A stretch of DNA of 63,364 nucleotides, filler included, from Reclinomonas americana ATCC 50394 (Eukaryota): assembly GCA_048213135.1 (NCBI GenBank). It is 16 parts of 16 records of this genome, joined end to end, with 100 filler letters (N's around TTAATTAATTAA, not from the genome) between each part and the next. Parts side by side here need not be neighbours in the genome. Positions count along the whole stretch, not along the records: positions 24,397 to 28,458 come from AFZH01017696.1; 15 more parts are not named here. One strand, given 5' to 3'. Both the position numbers and the translations under genes were made by a program. Shown piece by piece: positions 26,471 to 63,364 of the stretch; the stretch's first letter is position 1; each line of letters starts with the position of its first letter. The notes beneath the pieces were generated by a model, which saw nothing but the letters and a program-made list of their open reading frames with translations, was not told the DNA's origin and ran no database searches.

Positions 26471-28401
26471 TCACCAGACGCGGCACTTGTGCTGCGGGTT
26501 CATGTTGGACCCGACGGGGCACTGGAAAGCCTCGGCGAAGGGTGTCGAGTTGGACAGCGGACCGTTCACACGATACTTGGCCGGCGAATGCGGATCCGTC
26601 AGCACCTGCAGGCGAGCGTACGCCGGCTGCGAGTGCACAGTGTAGCCATGTTAGCAACTGAGACGCAGCATGTTTTCTTTGAGGTGGCAAACGCACCGTG
26701 GCCTTGGTGCACCACACTTGAGCGTAGGAGACAAAGTACAGCTGGTCATTGGTAAGACCGGAGACGATGCTGGGTTCTGTGCGGGGAACAGTGAATTTAA
26801 GTACTGGGAACACAAAGAGCAGCACCAATGTACCAACCAGCGTTTTGGCCCGGCTGCAGCGTCTTGCGGTAGGCGGCAAAGCCGACGCCCACACCACCCA
26901 TGTCGGCAATATTTTCACTGACAAAAGACGCCGAGACATCAGTCACTGATTGCAAGTGGCATCCTCGGCAACAGCAGCAGAACGCAACCCCAGAGTCAGG
27001 TTTCCGTTGACGGCCAGCATGCTGCCACCAATGTCCACCTCGTACGACGAGTACAGGTTGCTCACACAGTTGGCGCGCTCGACAAATTTCTCCACCGCCA
27101 TCTCGTTCCACCATGGCGACAAGTGACCACTGCATATCGATGATGAGCTCAACAACAACAAGAAGGACCTGACGATCGGCAGTTGCGCAACGTGGCATTG
27201 TACTGGCGTCCCTGGTCGTCAAGGCCGTGACTGATCTCGTGACCCATCACAGCTCCCTGCAAACACACAAATGAGTGCAAGCACACACAAACACATGCCA
27301 CAGAAACCGCCGTTGCGTCACGAAACAATCTGCAACACACAAAGTGAGACGACCGGAGCTGACGTGCGAGAGGACTCGCGACCACACACAGCTCACGCAA
27401 CAGCTCCGTAGTTGATGGCGGCAGGGAATGTCTGATTGAAGAAAGGCTGCTGCAAGATGCCGGCAGGGAAGGCGATCTCATTGGCCTCGGGCTGCGGAAA
27501 GGAGTGTGAGACGTGACGTTACCATTATGTGGGACCAACAGACATACCATGTAGTACGCATTCACGGTCGGAGCGGTCATGTACCACTTGGTGGGATCCA
27601 CAGCCTTGCCAACCTGTCCCATCAATGAGAAACAAAGCAGTCACGTTAATGCACCGACGACAGCGCCCCACCGATTGAATCTCCTTTTGCGTCTCGTAGT
27701 CACGTGCGGCTTGCACACTGGCAAACAGCGAGTCGGGCCGGAGCTGCGGAATGAGCTCCGCGTACGATTCCCACTTGTCGGGGTCTGCAGGTGAACATGC
27801 GTAAGTGCACAGTGCACACGCACAAGCGGCAGCAACAGCAACGCGCAACATCCAATCTTGTTGCGAATGGCACGCAGTTTTCCGACGGCGCGAGTGCGCG
27901 TGTCGGCATCCATCCAGTCGAGACCCGGCAGCGAGTCCTCAAACGCCTTCTCGACGTCGGCAATCATGCGCTTGGCAATCGTCTTGCTCGCACCAGCAAA
28001 CATGCGCTGCACGTAGTAGCGACCAACGATGCTGCAAGTGCGACGGGTGAGCACTCTGAACCGATGCACTTGCACGGATTGCATGACGGTGTGTGCGCAA
28101 CTCTCCGAGGTACCCGTCGACCATGCCGACACACGTCTTCCATCTGCGACAAGACGCCACGATGAGCGCAGCACATCAAGGGGAGATGCCCCCCACCACG
28201 TAGTTACCGAGGACGCGGTGCCTGCTGGCCACTGATGATTGACTTCCAGCTAAAGTCCTCATCCTGGAAGGCCTGCGACAGCTGGTTCGAGTACGCGTTG
28301 ATCACACGCATGCGCAGGTACGCGCGAATGACCGTGCGAGGCGTGTGGGCGATCAGCAGGCCGAGATTCTCAAAGTAGGTCGGCGACTGCACCACCAGCA
28401 A
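26471..28401 (-). CDS. M13 family zinc metallopeptidase (neprilysin/ECE-like); 5' part in gap
   Basis: LDWMDADTR, KIG|YPD, VNAYY, EIAFPAGILQQPFF, NYGA|I|GAVMGHEISHGLDDQG, LTLG|ENIADMGG, QLYFVSYAQVWC, TDPHSPAKYRVNGPLSN and CPVGSNMNPQHKCRVW*. Confidence 0.96.
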
Positions 28402-28558
28402 CTGCACCGAGACACACAGTCATCAGGTCAGACGTGCAAAAAACGCGAAAGAGAGAAANNNNNNNNNNNNNNNNNNNNNNNNNNNNNNNNNNNNNNNNNN
28501 NNTTAATTAATTAANNNNNNNNNNNNNNNNNNNNNNNNNNNNNNNNNNNNNNNNNNNN

Positions 28559-45205: not shown

Positions 45206-45640
45206 GGTGCTGATGATCAAGTGTGTCCTGTGCGCAAACTTCACGCAAGCACGGAGAAAGACGTATATAGTCAAGCCGCAGACAGCGTGTGTACTCTCGA
45301 GTGGTTCTGCATGCTGCGCCCTTGTCGGTTCACGTCGTCGATCGACGTCGGGGAAGACTATCAGTCATCGACGTCGACGTCGCGCACTCACAACTGCAGG
45401 CAACAACGAGCGATGCACAAGTGGCAAAGCAAAGCACGCACACGATCATACTAGTGAGTGCAAGATGCACACTGCTGGCATATCAGCTCGTCGAATGCGA
45501 TCGATATCGCAAACGTCGACCAACTGCACTTGCGATCGTCTCAAACACAGCCCGCAGCCAGCACTCTTCCCCTTCGTCGACCCACTCGTCGACATCACAG
45601 CAGACAGCGTGCAGGACCGCGCTGTCCAATTTCTCATCTC

Positions 45641-45970
45641 ATGTCGCCACATCGCGCGCTCCTCACCATCGCTCTTGTCTTTCTTGCCTGTGCGCTTCTG
45701 CTGACATGCAACGCCGACGCACGTGAGATCAAGCGGAAAGCCAAGAAAGACTCTGCTCCTCCTCCGCCTCCTCCTCCGCCTCCTCAACCAACACCACGCG
45801 AGCTCTTCCTCGCCGCCTGCCTCTCCGACGAGCACAATGTGTCTCTGCGCGCGGTCGATCTGCACGAGGCGCGCACAATGACGGATGTGACTGGCGTGCT
45901 CATGAGTGTCGATCAGGAGGAGGCAAAGGTGTTGTCGGTGGTCGGCAAGAGCAACACGCATGAAGCAGGT

Positions 45971-46004
<34 letters not shown>

Positions 46005-46897
46005 CGCAGACTGACACACACACACGCACTGTGGACACTCCCTTTCTCACTCCCTTCACCCACCCAGTCATCGCCTTTATGCGGGATCGTGCCATCGACG
46101 AGTGTGCGACAGTGCGCAATGTGCATGCAGCGCTGGTGTCGGCTGTGCGCGACTCGGTGGCTCGCGCGCGGTATGCAGAGCGCGAGAGACTGGTGGCCGC
46201 ACTGCCGGAGGGCACCTTCCCGCCGAGCCCGCCCGACAGCGAGTTGTTCCTCGGCGACGATTGGATGACGACGTCCATGTTCCCGCAAATGTTCTACAGC
46301 TTTGTGCCGTTCAACACCACGCTGCGCATGCTGGAGGTCGGCAGCTACGAGGGCCGCTCGGCGCTCTTTATGATGCGCAACTCGTTGCCGGAGGCCACAA
46401 TCGACTGCATTGACTATCACGGACCGGTGGAGCGCTTCCAGCGGGCGTTGAAGCCGTACATGGAGCAGGGTCGTGTGCGGTACATACACGAGGAGAGTCT
46501 GCCGGCCATGATGCGGCTGCTGACGGCCGACAAGCCGCGCACCGAGTTGTACGATTTCGTGTACGTGGATGCGTGCCACACGGCGACCCGCACGCTGGAG
46601 GACGCCGTGCACGCCTTCCATTTGCTGCGTGTGGGAGGCGTACTGGCACTGGACGATTACTTGTGGATGTACGGTCGGCGGCCAGCGCATCACACCCCCA
46701 AGCCGGCCATTGACGGCTTCTTGGCCACGTACGCTGGCGAGTTGGAGGTGCTGCATGTCGGCATGCAGGTGTGGGTGCGCAAGCTGGAGCCGGAGAACGA
46801 TTTCAAGTTGTGCTGGACAGATGAGGTGGCGTTTGCGCATGTGAAGCAGGAGAAGGAGGAGGACGGGGAGGAGGTGGCAGTGGTAGAAGACAAGTGA
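45641..46897 (+). CDS. Signal-peptide/anchor-bearing class I SAM-dependent methyltransferase (Methyltransf_24-like)
   Basis: Hydrophobic N-terminus (ALLTIALVFLACALLLTC). Motifs MLEVGSYEGRSA, YDFVYVDACH, LLRVGGVLALDDYLW and PKPAIDGFL. One intron at ~45969-46067. Confidence 0.85.
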
Positions 46898-46976: not shown

Positions 46977-49900
46977 TTACCAGGCGATGTAGGCCAGTCG
47001 ACCCTGCGGCCAGCGCCGCACCCACCATTTGCGAACTTCGTCAGCCGCGAAAATGGCGCACGCAAAGGCCACTGGAAAGAACCAGTATTCGGCCTTGATG
47101 GCGCGCGTGTTGAAGAGACTGCATTCGGACGACTCGGTGGTGAGCGAAGCAGGCACAGGTGCTGCAAGAGAAGCAGGTGATCTCTCACGAAACTCGTGGA
47201 AGACAGGCACATACACCACAATGACGGCAAATGCAAACGCCATTCCCTGGTACGTGATAATGGTCAAGTTGCGCGCCGGGCCCCACAGTGGGTTGTGCGA
47301 GAAGAACGAGACGCGGCGAGTGCGGGTGGCAAGCAGATTGCCCATCTGAATAACGACCAAGCACACAAAGTAGCACGTCTGAGCTCGGAACAAGTGCTCA
47401 TTGAGGTCGGTCTTGCTCAAGCCGTGATAGCCGTCGGCGTACTTGTCGTAAGCGAGGAACAAGTCGCTCGGGTACAGATTGGCCTCGTGTGCCATGTAGA
47501 AGAAGTACTGTGTGCAGGAATGGAGATAATAATGCGGGTTGAGAGCGAAGATGATGGAGAGAGCGTGGGCATCCGTTATGAACCATAAAGTGGCACGCCG
47601 TCGATTCGAGTACACCAAGGAAGAAGTACGCGTGAACAATTCTGCAGTGGAGGATAAGTGAGGGCTTCTGTCATCCTCCCTTGGTCAACAAGGCTGGAGA
47701 ATGAGTTACGCAACAGCTTCCAGTTGATGAGACGGTCCTTGACGCGCGAGCGAGGCTTGCGCAGCATCACATCGGACTCGGCATTCTCGGCGATCAGTGG
47801 GAAGCAGGTGACGAGATCGGTGACGACGGCGAGGAAGACCATGTAGAATGGCGAGAGTGGGAGCGGTACACCGAGAAGCACGTAGACGAGCACCGGGACG
47901 AACTCGGAGAAGGAGCCGGCTGTGATGCACATACGGAGTAAGCATTCGCTTGAGCGGGGATGAAGGTCAACCCAGCAATCGTCCCCACCTGGCAGCAGAT
48001 ACAGGCACACTTTCTTCAAGTTGTCATGCACCAAACGCCCGAGACGAATACCGTCGATAATTGAGCTAAAGTTGTTGGTCAGCAGAATCATGTCGGCCGC
48101 CTCTCGAGCCACATCGGAACCAGCTCCCATGGCAATGCCCAGATCACTCTGCTTGAGCGCCGGACTGTCGTTCACTCCATCGCCCGTCACGGCCACCTGA
48201 CACACATTTTAGTCACATAAGAGACGTATGCATGGACAACGGACGAAAGACGGCACCATCTTGTCGCGCTTCTGGAACTGCTTGACAATCAGCAGCTTGT
48301 GCTCGGGTGTCGTGCGGGCAAAAACAATCTCCTTGCGCGAGGTGACATACTCCCACGCGGCGTCGTCGAAGCCATCAATGTTGGTGCCCTTGATGACCAC
48401 CGCATCGTCGTCGTTGGCGTACAACGATGCCGCGGGGAGCACCTCGATATCCGTGCGCTCGGCGCGGTTGTTCTGCAGCAACAGCGGCAGCGTGGTGGAG
48501 TCGACCTCGTGCACCACACTCGCCGCCGAGATGATGCCGACTTGGCGGGCAATAGACACGGCCGTGGACGGATGATCGCCAGTCACCATGGCGACACGAA
48601 TACCGGCGCGACGCATGGCCGCCACCGCGTCCGGTACTTCCGCTCGCGGCGGATCGATGATCGCCACAAGCCCCAAGAAGGTCATGTCCTCGAGACGCAG
48701 CCTGCCGTCGGCCGACACGTCATCCTCGCCGAACCGCTCAAAGGACTCGCGAGTCCACTGCAGTGGATTGAGCTCCAGACGACAAATGCCAATGACACGC
48801 ATGCCTTCGGCACCGAGGTCATCCTGGCATTGCGCAATGGCATTGCGCTGGTCATCGCTCATAAACGTCACCTCGCCCGCCTGACCCGTCACCATGCTGG
48901 TGCACCGATGCAGCAGTCCCTCCGGGGCGCCCTTAAGAAGCACCACCAGGCGCTCTTCGTCACGGCCACTCTCGGGCGCCGGAGGATACGCCACCACCGA
49001 ACACATCCACTTGTTGCGCGAGTTGAACGGCACCTCGCCAATCACCTCGTGTGTGGTGCGGAGCTGCTGAACGCTGACAGGCAGACGCTCCTGTCCAAAC
49101 ATCAGCAGCGCGCAGTCCGTCGAGTTGCCCATCAACTTCTGCTCGGACAGCGGCAGATGCGCTGTGGTGGCGTCAACAATGGCCTGGTTGCAGAGGACCG
49201 AGGACGTGACAAGTTCCAAAAAGGAGCGGTCGTTGGAGACAAGCGCTTGCACCCACGACACGGCGTCGTCGGTCGCGACACCGTCGACCTGCTGCACGTA
49301 CGACCGCTGGCCAATCACGAGCTGCGCCACCGACATGCGATTCTGCGTCAGCGTGCCGGTCTTGTCGGAGGCGAGCACCTCGACTGAGCCGAGTGTCTCC
49401 ACCGTCACGAGGTTCTTGACGAGCACGCGCGCCTGCAACATACGGCGTGCGATAGCCACCATGGTAAGCTTGACGCACACCGGCATGCCTGCGTGCAATG
49501 GGGTATCCGTGTGAGAGACACAATCACACTCCCGAACTCTATTAATGTCCTCACTCTTTTCAACCATGCACACACCTGAGGGAAGCACTCCGACCTCCGT
49601 GCCAATGACCGTGGTGATGATACCCGAAACGGTGATGAACTCCGGGAACGACAGATGCAGCCACGCGCCCCAAATCACGAGCAGCACCGCGCCCATGGAG
49701 ATGGCGAGAATGGCAATGAAGCGGACGAACCAGTTGATTTCCTGTTGCAGTGGCGTGGCGGCCGGACTTGCAGAGGCCGTTAGTGTGGCAATCTTGCCGG
49801 CAACGGTCAAGCCGCCAGTGCGGAAGACGATGCCTGCAAGGAGAGTGAGGAATAGTATCATAAAAGGAGAAGAGACACGACTCTCATCTTTCTCCATTTC

Positions 49901-50805
49901 TCACCTCGTCCACGACCCTCGGTGATGGAGGTTCCGCCAAACGCCAAGTTACGCGACTCCATTGGACTGGGATCGGTCATGGTAGTCGTGCCGACCACCG
50001 GCTCGGCCTCGCCCGTCAGCATCGCCTGGTCCATCTTGATGTCGTCAACGTCATAGAGACGCAGGTCGGCGGGGACGCGGTCGCCCGACTGCAACACCAC
50101 AACGTCGCCCGGCACCAAACTCGCCAGCTCGACCATGACAATGTTGCCGTCGCGAATGACGCGCGCGTGACTCGGCATCATCTGCTTGATGGTGTTCATC
50201 ACTTGCGACGAGCTGTGCTCCTGGTAGGCAGTGAAGCCGAACGAGATGAAGATGATGACGAGGAGGAGCACGCCGAGAGCTGATGCACGGAAGGGGTGCA
50301 TCGGATCAGAGACCAGCTAGCAGGAAGACTCATGAAAAGAAGACGACTGCGCTCACCAAGGTTGACGATATCAGGCGGGTCACCGATCGGACGGTAGGCG
50401 ATGAAGCAGAGGATGGAGGCCACCCAGAGAATGGTGCCGAAATCCGCAAACAGCCACTCGATAATCTGGAGGAACAAGTTGTGCTTCTTTGGTCGGATGA
50501 CGTTGGGCCCGTACTGCGACAGTGCCTTTTTGGCTTGCGCGCTGGTCAGCCCGGCCTCAATGTCAGTGTGCAGCCGCTTGCTCAGCACGGATACGTCCAC
50601 CTGCGCACAGCGAGTCAGCGGGAGTCGTCGCACGCACATGGAGGGCCGCGCGCGGTGCACTCAACCTTGTGCTCATCAGCCAACGCGTCGGCAGCCACAT
50701 CGGGCGACACAGCCAGGTCCTGCTCTGCGACACCAGCCTCTCGAGCGGCGATCACATGGCTGAGTTCGTTGGAGCGGCTGCGGAAAGCAATAGGCAGCGT
50801 TGGGT
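46977..50805 (-). CDS. P-type ATPase, P2C (Na+/K+, H+/K+-like; fungal-type LLPAGSFSE M5); 5' exon not seen
   Basis: YGPN, LVPGDVV…GDRVPADLR, LTGEAEP, DKTGTLTQNRM, PFNSRNKW, KGAPE, DPPRAEV, MVTGDH, FARTTPEHK, VTGDGVNDSPALK, NLKK…LLPA|GSFSE and ESDVMLRKPR. C-terminus DEVRKWWVRRWPQGRLAYIAW*. Confidence 0.95.
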
Positions 50806-51161: not shown

Positions 51162-51361
51162 CGCCGGTGGACAAAGGGGGTTGGGTGCTTCAGGAGACGC
51201 ACAAATGGAGGAGAGGCAGCAGCCGTCATCACAACACGTTCGCAGTGACACAAAACACGAAAGAGTTGGCATGACACCAGGACACACCGATTAGAGTTGT
51301 CTACAACTCAGTGGTGCGCACATGATCCACCGAGTGCACAACAGAGACTACCACGGCTCAC

Positions 51362-53411
51362 CTTGCAAAAACACGGACGGCAAGTTCGCCAATGGCACCA
51401 GTCGCGCTGCGGCTGAGAGCAGTCGTCGCATGGCGGCCTCCGTGGACGTGCCACCCACCACGGTGACGCATCCGCGTTCAATGGCACGAGTGATGCAGTC
51501 AACAATGGCCTGAGTGCCGGCGGCATACGCGGGATTCTCGTATGCTCCCATCGGTCTGCACACAGAGTGAAGGAGATGAGCGCAGCGTAAGTGGCGCGCG
51601 CACTCGTCCATTGCAATCCGGATCCGGCCGGAGCGAAGAAGGGAGGGAGCACACGCACCCGATCCAGAGAATGGTCCGCGCATTGTCGAGTGTCGAGGTG
51701 TACCGGCGGACTGTTTTGGGGCCGATATCCATGACACGGTTGTCACGTCAACAAAAAGGAGTCTTGTGCCGGGACAATGTTCGCCTGGTAGTATCGATAT
51801 CGTCAGTGTGCCCGAACTCGTCAGAATGGAGCCAGCGAACAAAGCATGCACACGCACGCACCGCTGCAGTATCCGCGGAACTGCTGCACACAAAATCCGC
51901 CGGCAGCGTCAGAGGGATGTTGTGCTGCTCGGCATGAGCGAGGAACGCGGAAATGTCGGTGGCATCCTCGGCGGACACGGCAGCGGAGCGGTGGCCAGTC
52001 GGGTTCCCTGTCTCCGCCACAGAATCGATCACCGTCTTGAATGCGGCAGCGACGTTGCCACCGAGAAGCACATGATCGCACTGATCGCCAATGTTTCGAA
52101 GAATGCGCAACTTGCTGGCAATGTCGGAACTGAACAGCGGTTGAGGCAAGGCTGTACGAGTTTCTTGCATCACGCACACACGCACCCGCCAATCACAGCA
52201 ACCACAGGGCGCGCCAGGGAGTCCACGTTGGATAGCTGCTGCGCTGCGCGCGCAGCGTCCGGGATGATCAATGAGCTGCAGATATCGAATCCGAACGTCA
52301 ATGCGCATTGTGAGGGAGAAAGAGAGCAACGAGGGAACACACCAGTAGTGACGACCAGTGCGCGACGTCGATCCACTGCGCTCACGAGGCGTCGCAGAGC
52401 CGGTCGAGTCGGCTCCTTCGCTGGCGCTGGTGCCTCTATTAATTTGATGTGCACATGTGAGCGCAACAACTGCAACAAATTGCGCACTCGCGCACCACCA
52501 CCAATCTCACACATCGATTGAGAACGCAAGGAAAATGACTGATCCCTCCGCCGTCGATGCCGCCTACAACGAGGTCGAGGCAGAGAACTTTGTGCTGGAC
52601 GAGGCCGGTGTCGAAGTGGGTGTGCCGGTGATTCTGTCGCCAGCGGGTGGGCGTGCGCCTCCATTGCCACCATCTCCCCCACCACCCGCACGCCACGCAA
52701 CAGCCGTTTCGCGCTCTGTCTCAGCGTCGCCCTCGCTGGGGCCGAGTGCATCAGCTCCTGCACAGCGCGTGGCGCCCTCCTCAGCCTCCAAGGAGGGCGG
52801 CGTGCGCAGGAGCTGGCTGCCGCTCGCGTCTGGTGCCGCCGCCAGTCTCTCAGCAAGGCATGCATGATTCTTGCACATGTGACCACTCTCAATAGCTCAC
52901 TCCTTCATCGCTTTTCCACTTTCTTTGTGTGACTCTTCCCTTCCTGACACGCCCTTTTGTCACGCACAGCACACTGGCGGTGCAGCGCGAGGGCACTGGC
53001 ATCTTTGGCACACCGAAGCTTGCGTTGCGTCTGCATTCGTGCACGTGTCCAGTGCCCCTCTCGATCTCTCTCTCTTTGGCTCACTCGCTGACTGTGTGCC
53101 CAGTCCACGCGGGTCAAGGTCACCGTACTTGTCGCCCGCTCTTCCACCAGCGATGCCACTGTTGCGTGCGACTGCTGCGCTGTGATTGTCGTGCGCGTCA
53201 GCAGTTGTCGACCGGTGCGGAATTCCGTTGAGGGAGGGCGCCCGGTGCGCAGACCACGTACAGAAGGACATGTAATGCGTTTCCCTCTCCTGCCAGCAGC
53301 AGCCGCTTCGATTTGTCGTCTGAGCAACAGCCGAAAACTGATAAACTGTACAAGCTTGATCAATGCATTGACACATGCGTCCATCAATGCGTTTTTTCCT
53401 TCTTCCTCCGC
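51362..53411 (-). CDS. Highly divergent phosphoglycerate kinase-like protein (probable pseudoenzyme); both ends uncertain
   Basis: RPVVAVIGG|SDIASKL, DHVLLGGNVAAAF, LTLPADFV, MDIGPKT, ARTILWIG|PMGAYE…AAGTQAI and VTVVGG align with the PGK C-terminal domain. Upstream exons (GKNALMDACVN) show only weak N-domain resemblance. Confidence 0.7.
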
Positions 53412-60796: not shown

Positions 60797-63304
60797 ATGG
60801 CCGACGAGGGAAGGTCTGTGGTGCCACTCTCCACTCTGTGTCTCTCTTGCTTGCTCGCTTGCTTGTTGTCTGCGTCTCTCGTTTCCGCGTTGTTTGCGTT
60901 GTTGTCGTGCGTGACATGTCCACTCACACTTTGACACACAACACACAGACGACGATCAAGTCGTCGCTCAGCAGCAGCAGGCAGTGAGCCTCCACCACCA
61001 CCACCACCAGCAGCAGCATCCACACGTCGCGGTCGCGGTGCATCGCGGAAACGTAAGTGCACGTGTGAGTCACACACACTCTGTCTCTCTCTGCTCGTCA
61101 CACTCACGCGCACGCGCTGGCAACACAGAGGACGATGATGTTGAGATGCACGCAGCGCCGGTAGAGAGCGTAGAGGCGCCGGCAATGGAGAGCAGCAGCG
61201 CGGGTGAGATTTCATTGTCGATTGAGGAGACCAACAAGATGCGCGCCAAGCTCGGCCTCAAGCCGCTGCGTGTGGATCCTGCGCCTTCTGCTGCTGCTGC
61301 TGCTGCTCCNNNNNNNNNNNNNNNNNNNNNNNNNNNNNNNNNNNNNNNNNNNNTTAATTAATTAANNNNNNNNNNNNNNNNNNNNNNNNNNNNNNNNNNN
61401 NNNNNNNNNTCTCTCTCTCTCTCTCCTTGCACCTTCACTCCCTGTCTCCCTCCCTTTCACCTTCACTCGCTTCCTTCCCCTCTCTGCATTCTTCTCTTTG
61501 TGCCTCACTCTCTCCCCTCCCTCACACACTTTCTCTTTCTATCCCTCCCTCCCTCCCTCTCTGCATCTGACTCCCTGTCTGTCACCCAGAAACTCGTCGG
61601 CGACGACGACGACGACGACATCAAGAACTGGTTGCAGAAGAGCCGACGCATGGAGGTCTGTGGACTGAGCAATGCGCGCTTGCATGCTTGCCGTGCCGAT
61701 GCTCATGTGTGATGCACAAAAAACAAAAAAACAGGAGGAGCGCAAGCAGGCAGAGGAGGCGCGCAGAAAGCAAAAGAAGAAGCACGATGAGGAGGACGAG
61801 GATGATGACGACGATGACGACGAGGAAGGAGGAGGGTCGCGAGGCGGACGGGGTCTGTCGGGTTTGAAGGTCGCGCACAAGATGGATACGGTGGCGGGTG
61901 GCGACGAGGTCATTCTCACGCTCCGCGACTCGTCCATTATCGACGGCGAGAAGTTGAATGAGAGTTGCGAAATCATCCCTTGCTGCATCCGTGGTCGCGG
62001 ACGTGCGTCGCTGACTCTGCGTGCGCGCCACAGATGAGGACGAGCTGGAGAATCCGCTGTTGGTCGAAGCCGAAAAGGCACAATGGAAGAAGAAGCAGAA
62101 GGATCTGGTCGCTCGCGGCGGTTACAATGCCGTGGAGGAGTACGAGCAGGGTCCGTCGCGCGCCCTTCTCTCGCAGTACGACGATCAGAATCGGGAGTTT
62201 ACACGTGAGGTGTGTTTCATTTCGTGCACCTTTCTTGGGGCGTCCCTCACGCACGGTTCGTACAGTCGTTCCGGCTCGGCGGAGAAGAGACGTCGGAGGA
62301 GGCAAAGCAGAAGCGCCTGGCGGCCGTTCGCGCCAAGTTGCTCGGCTCCAAGGCCATGTCTTCGGCGCCCACTGGTCCGTCGCGAGATGTGTTGGAGGCG
62401 GTGAGTTTTCCGCTACTCCTTCCACCTCCCTGCACGCGTGCGTCTCTCGTACTCATCTTAAATGCAACCGTGTTTCGCAGACTGGTGGTGAGGTTGTTGT
62501 GCAGGAGTCCGCCGACGGAAAGCGTGCAGTCAAGCTGAAGTACTCGTTGGAGGACTCGCGTTGCGTGAAAGAATTCGCTCATTTTTCATGTGACCGCCCG
62601 CTTCCGTGCGCACTCACCTGCGTGTCTCCCGTACAGAACCGACCATGGCACGCGATTACTACACGGTGGAGGAAATGTCACAGTTCAAGAAGAAGCGTGT
62701 GAAGGTTCGAGTTGCAACTGTACCGCGGACACATTTTTCAGTTGGTTTCTCATTGCGGGTGAGAGAGCAGAAGGTGAAGAAGAAGAAGAAGGCGAGCAGC
62801 ACGCTGGAGGAGTTGGACGATATGCTGCCGGAGACCACTGCTGCGGATCATGGCAGTCGCAAGAGTCGTGGTGGGCACGTGAGCAAGCAGCGTGCCGCTG
62901 AGGACGCACTGAACGAGGAGCGGCAAGCGGCATATGCGTTTGCTGTACGCAAGAAGGAGGCGGCTGCGCGTGAGAAGCTGCGTGTCGATGACGACGACGA
63001 CTCGCCGCAGCTGTCGCGTCGCTTGCAGAATCTTGGTGCAGGTGGACCCAAGGGCGACGAGCGTCTTGCCATGCTCGGTGAGTGGCGCTTTGTCATGGTT
63101 TGTTGTTGGCATTCACTCACGTACATTTGCCATGCACATGCAGTGTCGGCGTCTGCACCGGCGGAGAGCATGGATCAAGATGGCGATGGAGACGACGGCG
63201 GACTGGTGTTGGACCCCACCGACGAGTTTGCTCGCTCGCTTCCGACGTTGGCCGGCCTGCAGGATAAGAAGAAGGAGGAGGACGAAGTCGCTGCGCAGAA
63301 CCAG
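60797..63304 (+). CDS. SART1: U4/U6.U5 tri-snRNP protein SART1/Snu66 (continues beyond window)
   Basis: HIND motif GEISLSIEETNKMRAKLGLKPL, plus LSGLKVAH, VILTLRDSSII, EDELEN, LLSQYDD, DYYTVEEMSQFKKK and GLVLDPTDEFARSL. Confidence 0.95.
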
Positions 63305-63364
63305 GTACGCGTGGACAGTGTCCTCCCTCGTTCATCCATCCACCACCGCCTTACCCCCCTATTT

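Follow-up and report, generated by a model that had tools for sequence, protein, structure and literature searches.

The window, a stretch of 63,364 nucleotides from the assembly of Reclinomonas americana ATCC 50394, is composed of 16 short contigs (about 1.3–10 kb) joined by N44-TTAATTAATTAA-N44 linkers, and genes on either side of a linker are not real neighbours because the linkers join separate contigs. On the minus strand of the part at positions 24397–28458 lie the 3´ two-thirds of a gene for an M13 (neprilysin-family) peptidase, which was located at 26471..28401 by Pfam matches to exon ORFs, tblastn and a spliced model. Its 5´ end is cut by the end of the contig and by the linker that starts there (N run at 28459–28558). 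By homology, the window also contains MCM8 (18433–21186, minus strand), CGI-121 (22665–23315, minus), a methyltransferase (45458–46894, plus), a P-type cation ATPase (47007–50600, minus), phosphoglycerate kinase (51351–52506, minus) and a SART-1 family protein (62594–63364, plus). Best identities were 38% for the ATPase, with matches named as fungal-type sodium/potassium or calcium ATPases, and ~70% for MCM8, and for both genes the matches were spread over many eukaryotic groups.

The M13 gene model, built from sequence and homology, comprises 12 exons of 3–194 nt and 11 introns, all of the latter with a CAG acceptor. Its spliced frame is open for 402 aa and ends in CRVW, followed by TGA (26473–26471). 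The profile PF05649 (Peptidase_M13_N) matched exon ORFs of the gene with E values of 1.4e-16 and 5.5e-13, PF01431 (Peptidase_M13) matched the exon that precedes the interval analyzed below (E 5.2e-10), and tblastn with the bacterial-like homologue P0001 was collinear over residues ~300–682, that is, to the C-terminus. NAYY, HEISH, GENIADMGG and a C-terminal CRVW are all present in the spliced model; we take the HExxH zinc motif, the downstream glutamate of ENIAD and the substrate-binding NAYY to be the hallmarks of the family. Because the spliced frame is open and NAYY, HEISH and GENIAD are retained, the gene looks functional. It shares with neprilysin, ECE-1 and PepO the M13_N and M13 domains, NAYY, HExxH, ENIAD and a C-terminal CxxW, and differs from them in that just the 3´ two-thirds are available here and in that its closest sequences are bacterial-like and at most 55% identical over one exon.

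With regard to these relatives, P0001 (55% identical over one exon) has a lipoprotein-like N-terminus, and metagenome loci reached at most 51% identity over the exon and look like uninterrupted bacterial genes. Of the three genes that we examined, the M13 gene has the highest intron density, with 11 introns in 1.2 kb of coding sequence, and it may conceivably have come from bacteria and then gained many introns.

Our analysis centred on 145 nt (27401–27257, minus strand) that lie just before the catalytic motif of the M13 gene. The exon upstream of this interval (27402..27491, minus strand, 90 nt), delimited by the sequence, Pfam and the spliced model, encodes PEANEIAFPAGILQQPFFNQTFPAAINYGA and ends with AAC TAC GGA GCT in phase 0. 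The downstream exon (27192..27256, minus strand, 65 nt), for which tblastn was used in addition, begins with GGA GCT GTG ATG GGT CAC GAG at 27256 and encodes GAVMGHEISHGLDDQGRQYNA(T), which includes the HExxH zinc motif; another GTTGCG intron (27191–27130, minus strand) comes after it. A preliminary description of the locus had divided the interval into two introns with a single codon between them and had pointed to a branch-like site in each intron. When the sequence was re-read, all of its coordinates proved exact on the minus strand, and both branch-like sites were found as described. Intron 6a (27330..27401, minus strand, 72 nt), called from the sequence and from position weight matrices (PWMs), reads GTTGCG...TTGCAG and carries the branch-like CTCAC at 27348–27344. 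It is followed by the putative 3-nt microexon ATT (27327..27329, minus strand), which would encode Ile, is in phase 0 on both sides and was called from residue spacing, a family HMM and splice signals. Intron 6b (27257..27326, minus strand, 70 nt), called in the same way as 6a, reads GTTTCG...TTGCAG and carries CTCAT at 27275–27271. In both introns the branch-like A is 15 nt from the 3´ end. The retention of 6a or 6b brings an in-frame TGA into the message at intron positions 7–9.

The two introns resemble each other at their ends, opening with GTT[G/T]CGTGA and closing with CTCAYTTTGTGTG(T)TTGCAG, and both begin with GTTNCGTGA (27401–27393 and 27326–27318, minus strand). An origin of the pair by tandem duplication gained no support: the alignment score of 9 was reached by 5 of 351 pairs of reference introns, but also by 325 of 2000 shuffles of the interior.

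Gap-free homology fixed the positions of 27 reference introns in three of the window's genes (18529–21123, 26627–28207 and 47119–50356, all on the minus strand); nine belong to the M13 gene, eight to the P-type ATPase (homologues P0006 and P0008) and ten to MCM8 (P0291 and P0370). MCM8 introns M4 and M9, which fall in variable regions, and the first M13 intron, truncated by the contig end, were left out as their borders could not be fixed. Reference lengths ranged from 54 to 87 nt, with a mean of 67.9 and an SD of 8.1, in a set from three genes that is too small to exclude a rare tail of long introns. Measured against this set, a 145-nt intron has a z score of 9.5, and introns of 72 and 70 nt have z scores of 0.5 and 0.25, respectively, in agreement with the earlier statement that both are of normal size for this genome.

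The donor consensus of the reference set is unusual and degenerate, GT[G/T]NNN, with G or T at position 3 in 25 of the 27 introns and with C and G equally frequent at position 5 (12 each). GTTGCG, the first donor of the interval, was the commonest donor hexamer (6/27), and ATPase intron A8 (47193, GTTTCG) has exactly the 9-mer found at the 6b donor, GTTTCGTGA. The higher share of GTTGCG donors in the M13 gene (4/9, vs 2/18 in the others) was not significant (Fisher p = 0.14). A literature search on GTTGCG as a splice consensus showed nothing relevant among the papers listed, judged by title and abstract, and no Rfam RNA family was detected in the window and hence no U1 snRNA with which the donors could be compared. 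CAG acceptors were found in 26 of the 27 reference introns, as was a YTNAY motif at 7–27 nt (median 16.5) from the 3´ end, most commonly in the form CTCAC. Thus, 6a and 6b each combine a full set of signals with a length typical of this genome. One feature counts against the microexon: both flanking donors carry T at exon position -1, instead of the G present in 20 of the 27 reference donors.

Scores from PWMs built on the 27 introns (leave-one-out medians of 5.1 bits for donors and 5.6 bits for acceptors) were 5.2 and 7.4 bits for the donor and acceptor of 6a and 6.7 and 9.0 bits for those of 6b. Such scores discriminate poorly because the donor consensus is weak: among decoy sites in the three genes, 58 of 611 GTs equalled or exceeded the score of the 6a donor and 19 of 611 that of the 6b donor. 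For acceptors, the respective counts were 14 of 364 and 7 of 364.

A further line of evidence came from the protein family. The upstream exon, when read through, covers positions 3–36 of PF01431, its proper end (Ala) falling on position 35 and a read-through Val on position 36, and the Gly that opens the downstream exon starts at 37; position 36 is therefore empty without ATT. In order to set this gap against the family, 1.84 billion representative proteins were searched with the 41-aa read-through piece, and the best 150 together with five earlier matches, 155 in all, were examined. The full motif was found in 108 of them and amounted to 115 instances, the other 47 proteins being fragments without HExxH or without the required motif pattern. 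In all 115 instances, N[YF]G and HExxH are separated by exactly seven residues, which bears out the earlier remark that the protein is one residue short when ATT is skipped. The residue at the missing position was I in 73 instances, M in 17, L in 15, V, F and T in three each and A in one. In this locus, seven residues are obtained with ATT or with a GC donor that yields Val, and a single GT–AG intron gives six. The alignment with solved M13 structures (among them 3dwb, 9eyg and 1dmt) extends here as far as NYG(A/G)I. With ATT included, the gap that separates NYGA from GAVMGHE is filled, the frame is maintained and the conserved protein sequence is complete again. ATT is the codon used for 10 of the 20 Ile residues of the gene.

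A local family HMM, built from 113 of the motif segments, gave 100.8 bits for the model with Ile, 99.3 bits for the model with Val, 90.3 bits for the one-residue deletion left by a single intron and 74.3 bits for an in-frame retention. The skipping of ATT thus costs 10.5 bits, and the HMM cannot separate Ile from Val, at a difference of 1.5 bits. As for conservation of ATT or of its splice sites, no close relative that could show it was found among homologous proteins searched with the 60-aa exon, in the representative library searched with the 41-aa piece or among metagenome contigs. In the representative library, many short ORF-like fragments (P0146, P0147, P0152, P0155, P0215, P0170 and P0213) are normal through NYGAIG(T/S)V or NYGG and unrelated thereafter. 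Their sequences suggest that other eukaryotes also carry M13 introns within a few codons of the NYG site, and a microexon was found in none of these short M13 fragments.

We also enumerated all in-frame, stop-free solutions of the interval with GT or GC donors and AG acceptors. Of the 24 obtained (seven with one intron and 17 with two), only two produced the spacing of the family, namely the microexon solution, NYGAIGAVMGHE, and the solution with a GC donor and Val, NYGAVGAVMGHE. The former had the top summed signal score among the two-intron solutions, 28.4. For the chance level, 200,000 sequences of 145 nt were simulated with a first-order Markov model trained on the reference introns. Of these, 11% contained an internal AG-NNN-GT that offered a sense codon and left two halves of 54–87 nt. 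The number fell to 101 of 200,000 when the codon had to be Ile and neither site could score below the lower quartile of real sites, and to 20 of 200,000 when a family-compatible codon had to go with acceptor and donor scores that equalled or exceeded the observed ones. The acceptor–ATT–donor pattern is more than chance.

A scan for double-length introns, which the preliminary description had proposed for the genome, was run on the 63-kb window and yielded three acceptor–NNN–donor pairs with an acceptor score of at least 6 and a donor score of at least 5. Apart from the M13 site, these were two pairs (42614 and 21666, minus strand) that are an ordinary exon end and an exon interior.

Taken together, each test applied to the sequence (donors, lengths, branch-like motifs, CAG acceptors, spacing and summed score) favours two ordinary introns around ATT, as had been put forward. 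We consider it likely that the 145-nt interval consists of spliceosomal introns of 72 and 70 nt around a 3-nt exon that is constitutively included in the main form of the transcript, and we infer that ATT is present in the mature mRNA. This mRNA would read GGA GCT ATT GGA GCT, and the protein would read NYGAIGAVMGHE, in which the catalytic HExxH helix starts with the spacing usual for M13.

With regard to the order of splicing, splicing in this short-intron genome probably proceeds by intron definition, with every intron recognised as a whole, and sites are likely paired across introns because introns are ~68 nt long and the shortest exons other than the microexon go down to 42 nt. Between the 3´ splice site of 6a and the 5´ splice site of 6b lie only the 3 nt of ATT, where the footprints of U1 and U2AF would leave no room for both complexes at once. 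Because of this 3-nt gap, 6a and 6b would most likely be removed one after the other and not simultaneously, and either order would leave the remaining intron beside an exon of normal size.

The simplest gene model is a single 145-nt intron (27401–27257), whose outer donor and acceptor score 5.2 and 9.0 bits; the protein would then be NYGAGAVMGHE and the internal AG-ATT-GT a coincidence. Alternatively, ATT may be an exon that is mostly skipped, as is reportedly common for microexons in animals (PMC7935315, PMC8378409, PMC8042270). Together, these two options appear very unlikely. Such an intron would lie 9.5 SD above the mean, the longest of the 27 references being 87 nt, and its six-residue spacing occurs in 0 of 115 family motif instances and lowers the HMM score by 10.5 bits; furthermore, internal signals of the observed quality arose in just 20 of the 200,000 simulations. 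A related arrangement is the stwintron, or zero-length exon, in which removal of an inner intron rebuilds the outer splice site and no nucleotides are left in the mRNA. This kind of nested or recursive removal without retained bases was rejected here, as it gives the six-residue spacing (0/115) and no splice signal is interrupted by another intron.

A different way to recover the spacing is a 142-nt GC–AG intron that runs from the donor GCGTGA at 27398 to the acceptor at 27257, so that Val replaces Ile (NYGAVGAVMGHE). Seven residues are restored in this model, Val is found at the position in 3 of 115 instances, and the HMM places it merely 1.5 bits under the Ile model. We nevertheless regard it as the least probable of the explanations: the GC donor has a PWM score of -3.9, in a reference set with 0 of 27 GC donors, and the length of the intron remains about 9 SD above the mean. 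The model would also use GTT, a rare Val codon in the M13 gene (2/29), and it leaves unexplained both the perfect GTTGCG at 27401 and the internal acceptor–donor pair. Finally, the assembly could be wrong at this locus, the gene copy could be decaying, or part of the region could be retained in the transcript, for instance with a GTGAGC donor at 27396 and the acceptor at 27330, which would insert 25 residues in frame and without a stop. The assembly is indeed very fragmented (the 63-kb window takes in 16 contigs), and the 5´ part of the gene is missing from its contig. However, splicing of the remaining exons gives a single open frame that contains all the M13 hallmarks, and the two halves of the interval are not duplicates of each other (325 of 2000 shuffles being at least as similar). 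In addition, the GTGAGC donor has a PWM score of 0.7 and is out of frame unless the 25 junk residues are inserted, and the retention model reaches 74.3 bits against 100.8 in the family HMM. This group of explanations is therefore highly improbable.

The putative constitutive ATT exon has counterparts in known systems. Coding microexons of 1–15 nt, such as the 1-nt exons of APC11 and VPS55, have been described in land plants and are usually missed by annotation, and it has been argued that their flanking introns cannot be assembled on simultaneously and are spliced in sequence (Nat Commun 2022, PMC8831610). Like ATT, these are tiny coding exons between two introns that keep a conserved protein intact, and they are mostly included. 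They are backed by RNA-seq, RT-PCR and cross-species conservation in that report, whereas the M13 exon is predicted from the sequence of one genome. The setting differs as well, since here introns of ~68 nt with degenerate donors, in an intron-dense microbial eukaryote, enclose an exon of exactly one codon, with phase 0 at either end. Animal microexons are reported to have a size of 3–27 nt and to be neuronal and SRRM4- or PRP-40-dependent (PMC7935315, PMC8378409, PMC8042270). Their lower limit of 3 nt, their in-frame nature and their role in adjusting protein surfaces or motifs recall ATT. In contrast, according to the same sources, they are alternative, tissue-regulated and located in long introns, and ATT is probably constitutive and lies between two minimal introns.

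If the ATT exon is real, standard predictors would give an M13 peptidase that lacks a residue beside its catalytic motif, or one with an odd GC donor, which makes the locus a concrete annotation trap. It would also offer a clean test case for minimal exon size when introns are the units recognised by the spliceosome. Knowledge of splicing itself is unchanged by it, because coding microexons of 1–15 nt are already documented in plants and animals. A more far-reaching version, which we hold to be unlikely, is that ATT is alternatively included, that skipping shifts the register of the HExxH helix by one residue and leaves an inactive or re-specified peptidase, and that the genome may hold many sub-codon or one-codon exons. 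Were this the case, the splicing of a single codon could switch a peptidase on or off, and many such exons, given the tight introns of ~68 nt and the degenerate GT[G/T]NNN donors, would be present in no predictor's output.

As regards the composition of the window, GTGTGT/ACACAC was by far the commonest GT-hexamer, with 383 occurrences on both strands, and TG/CA microsatellites fill intergenic stretches and some of the polypyrimidine-like tracts of introns.
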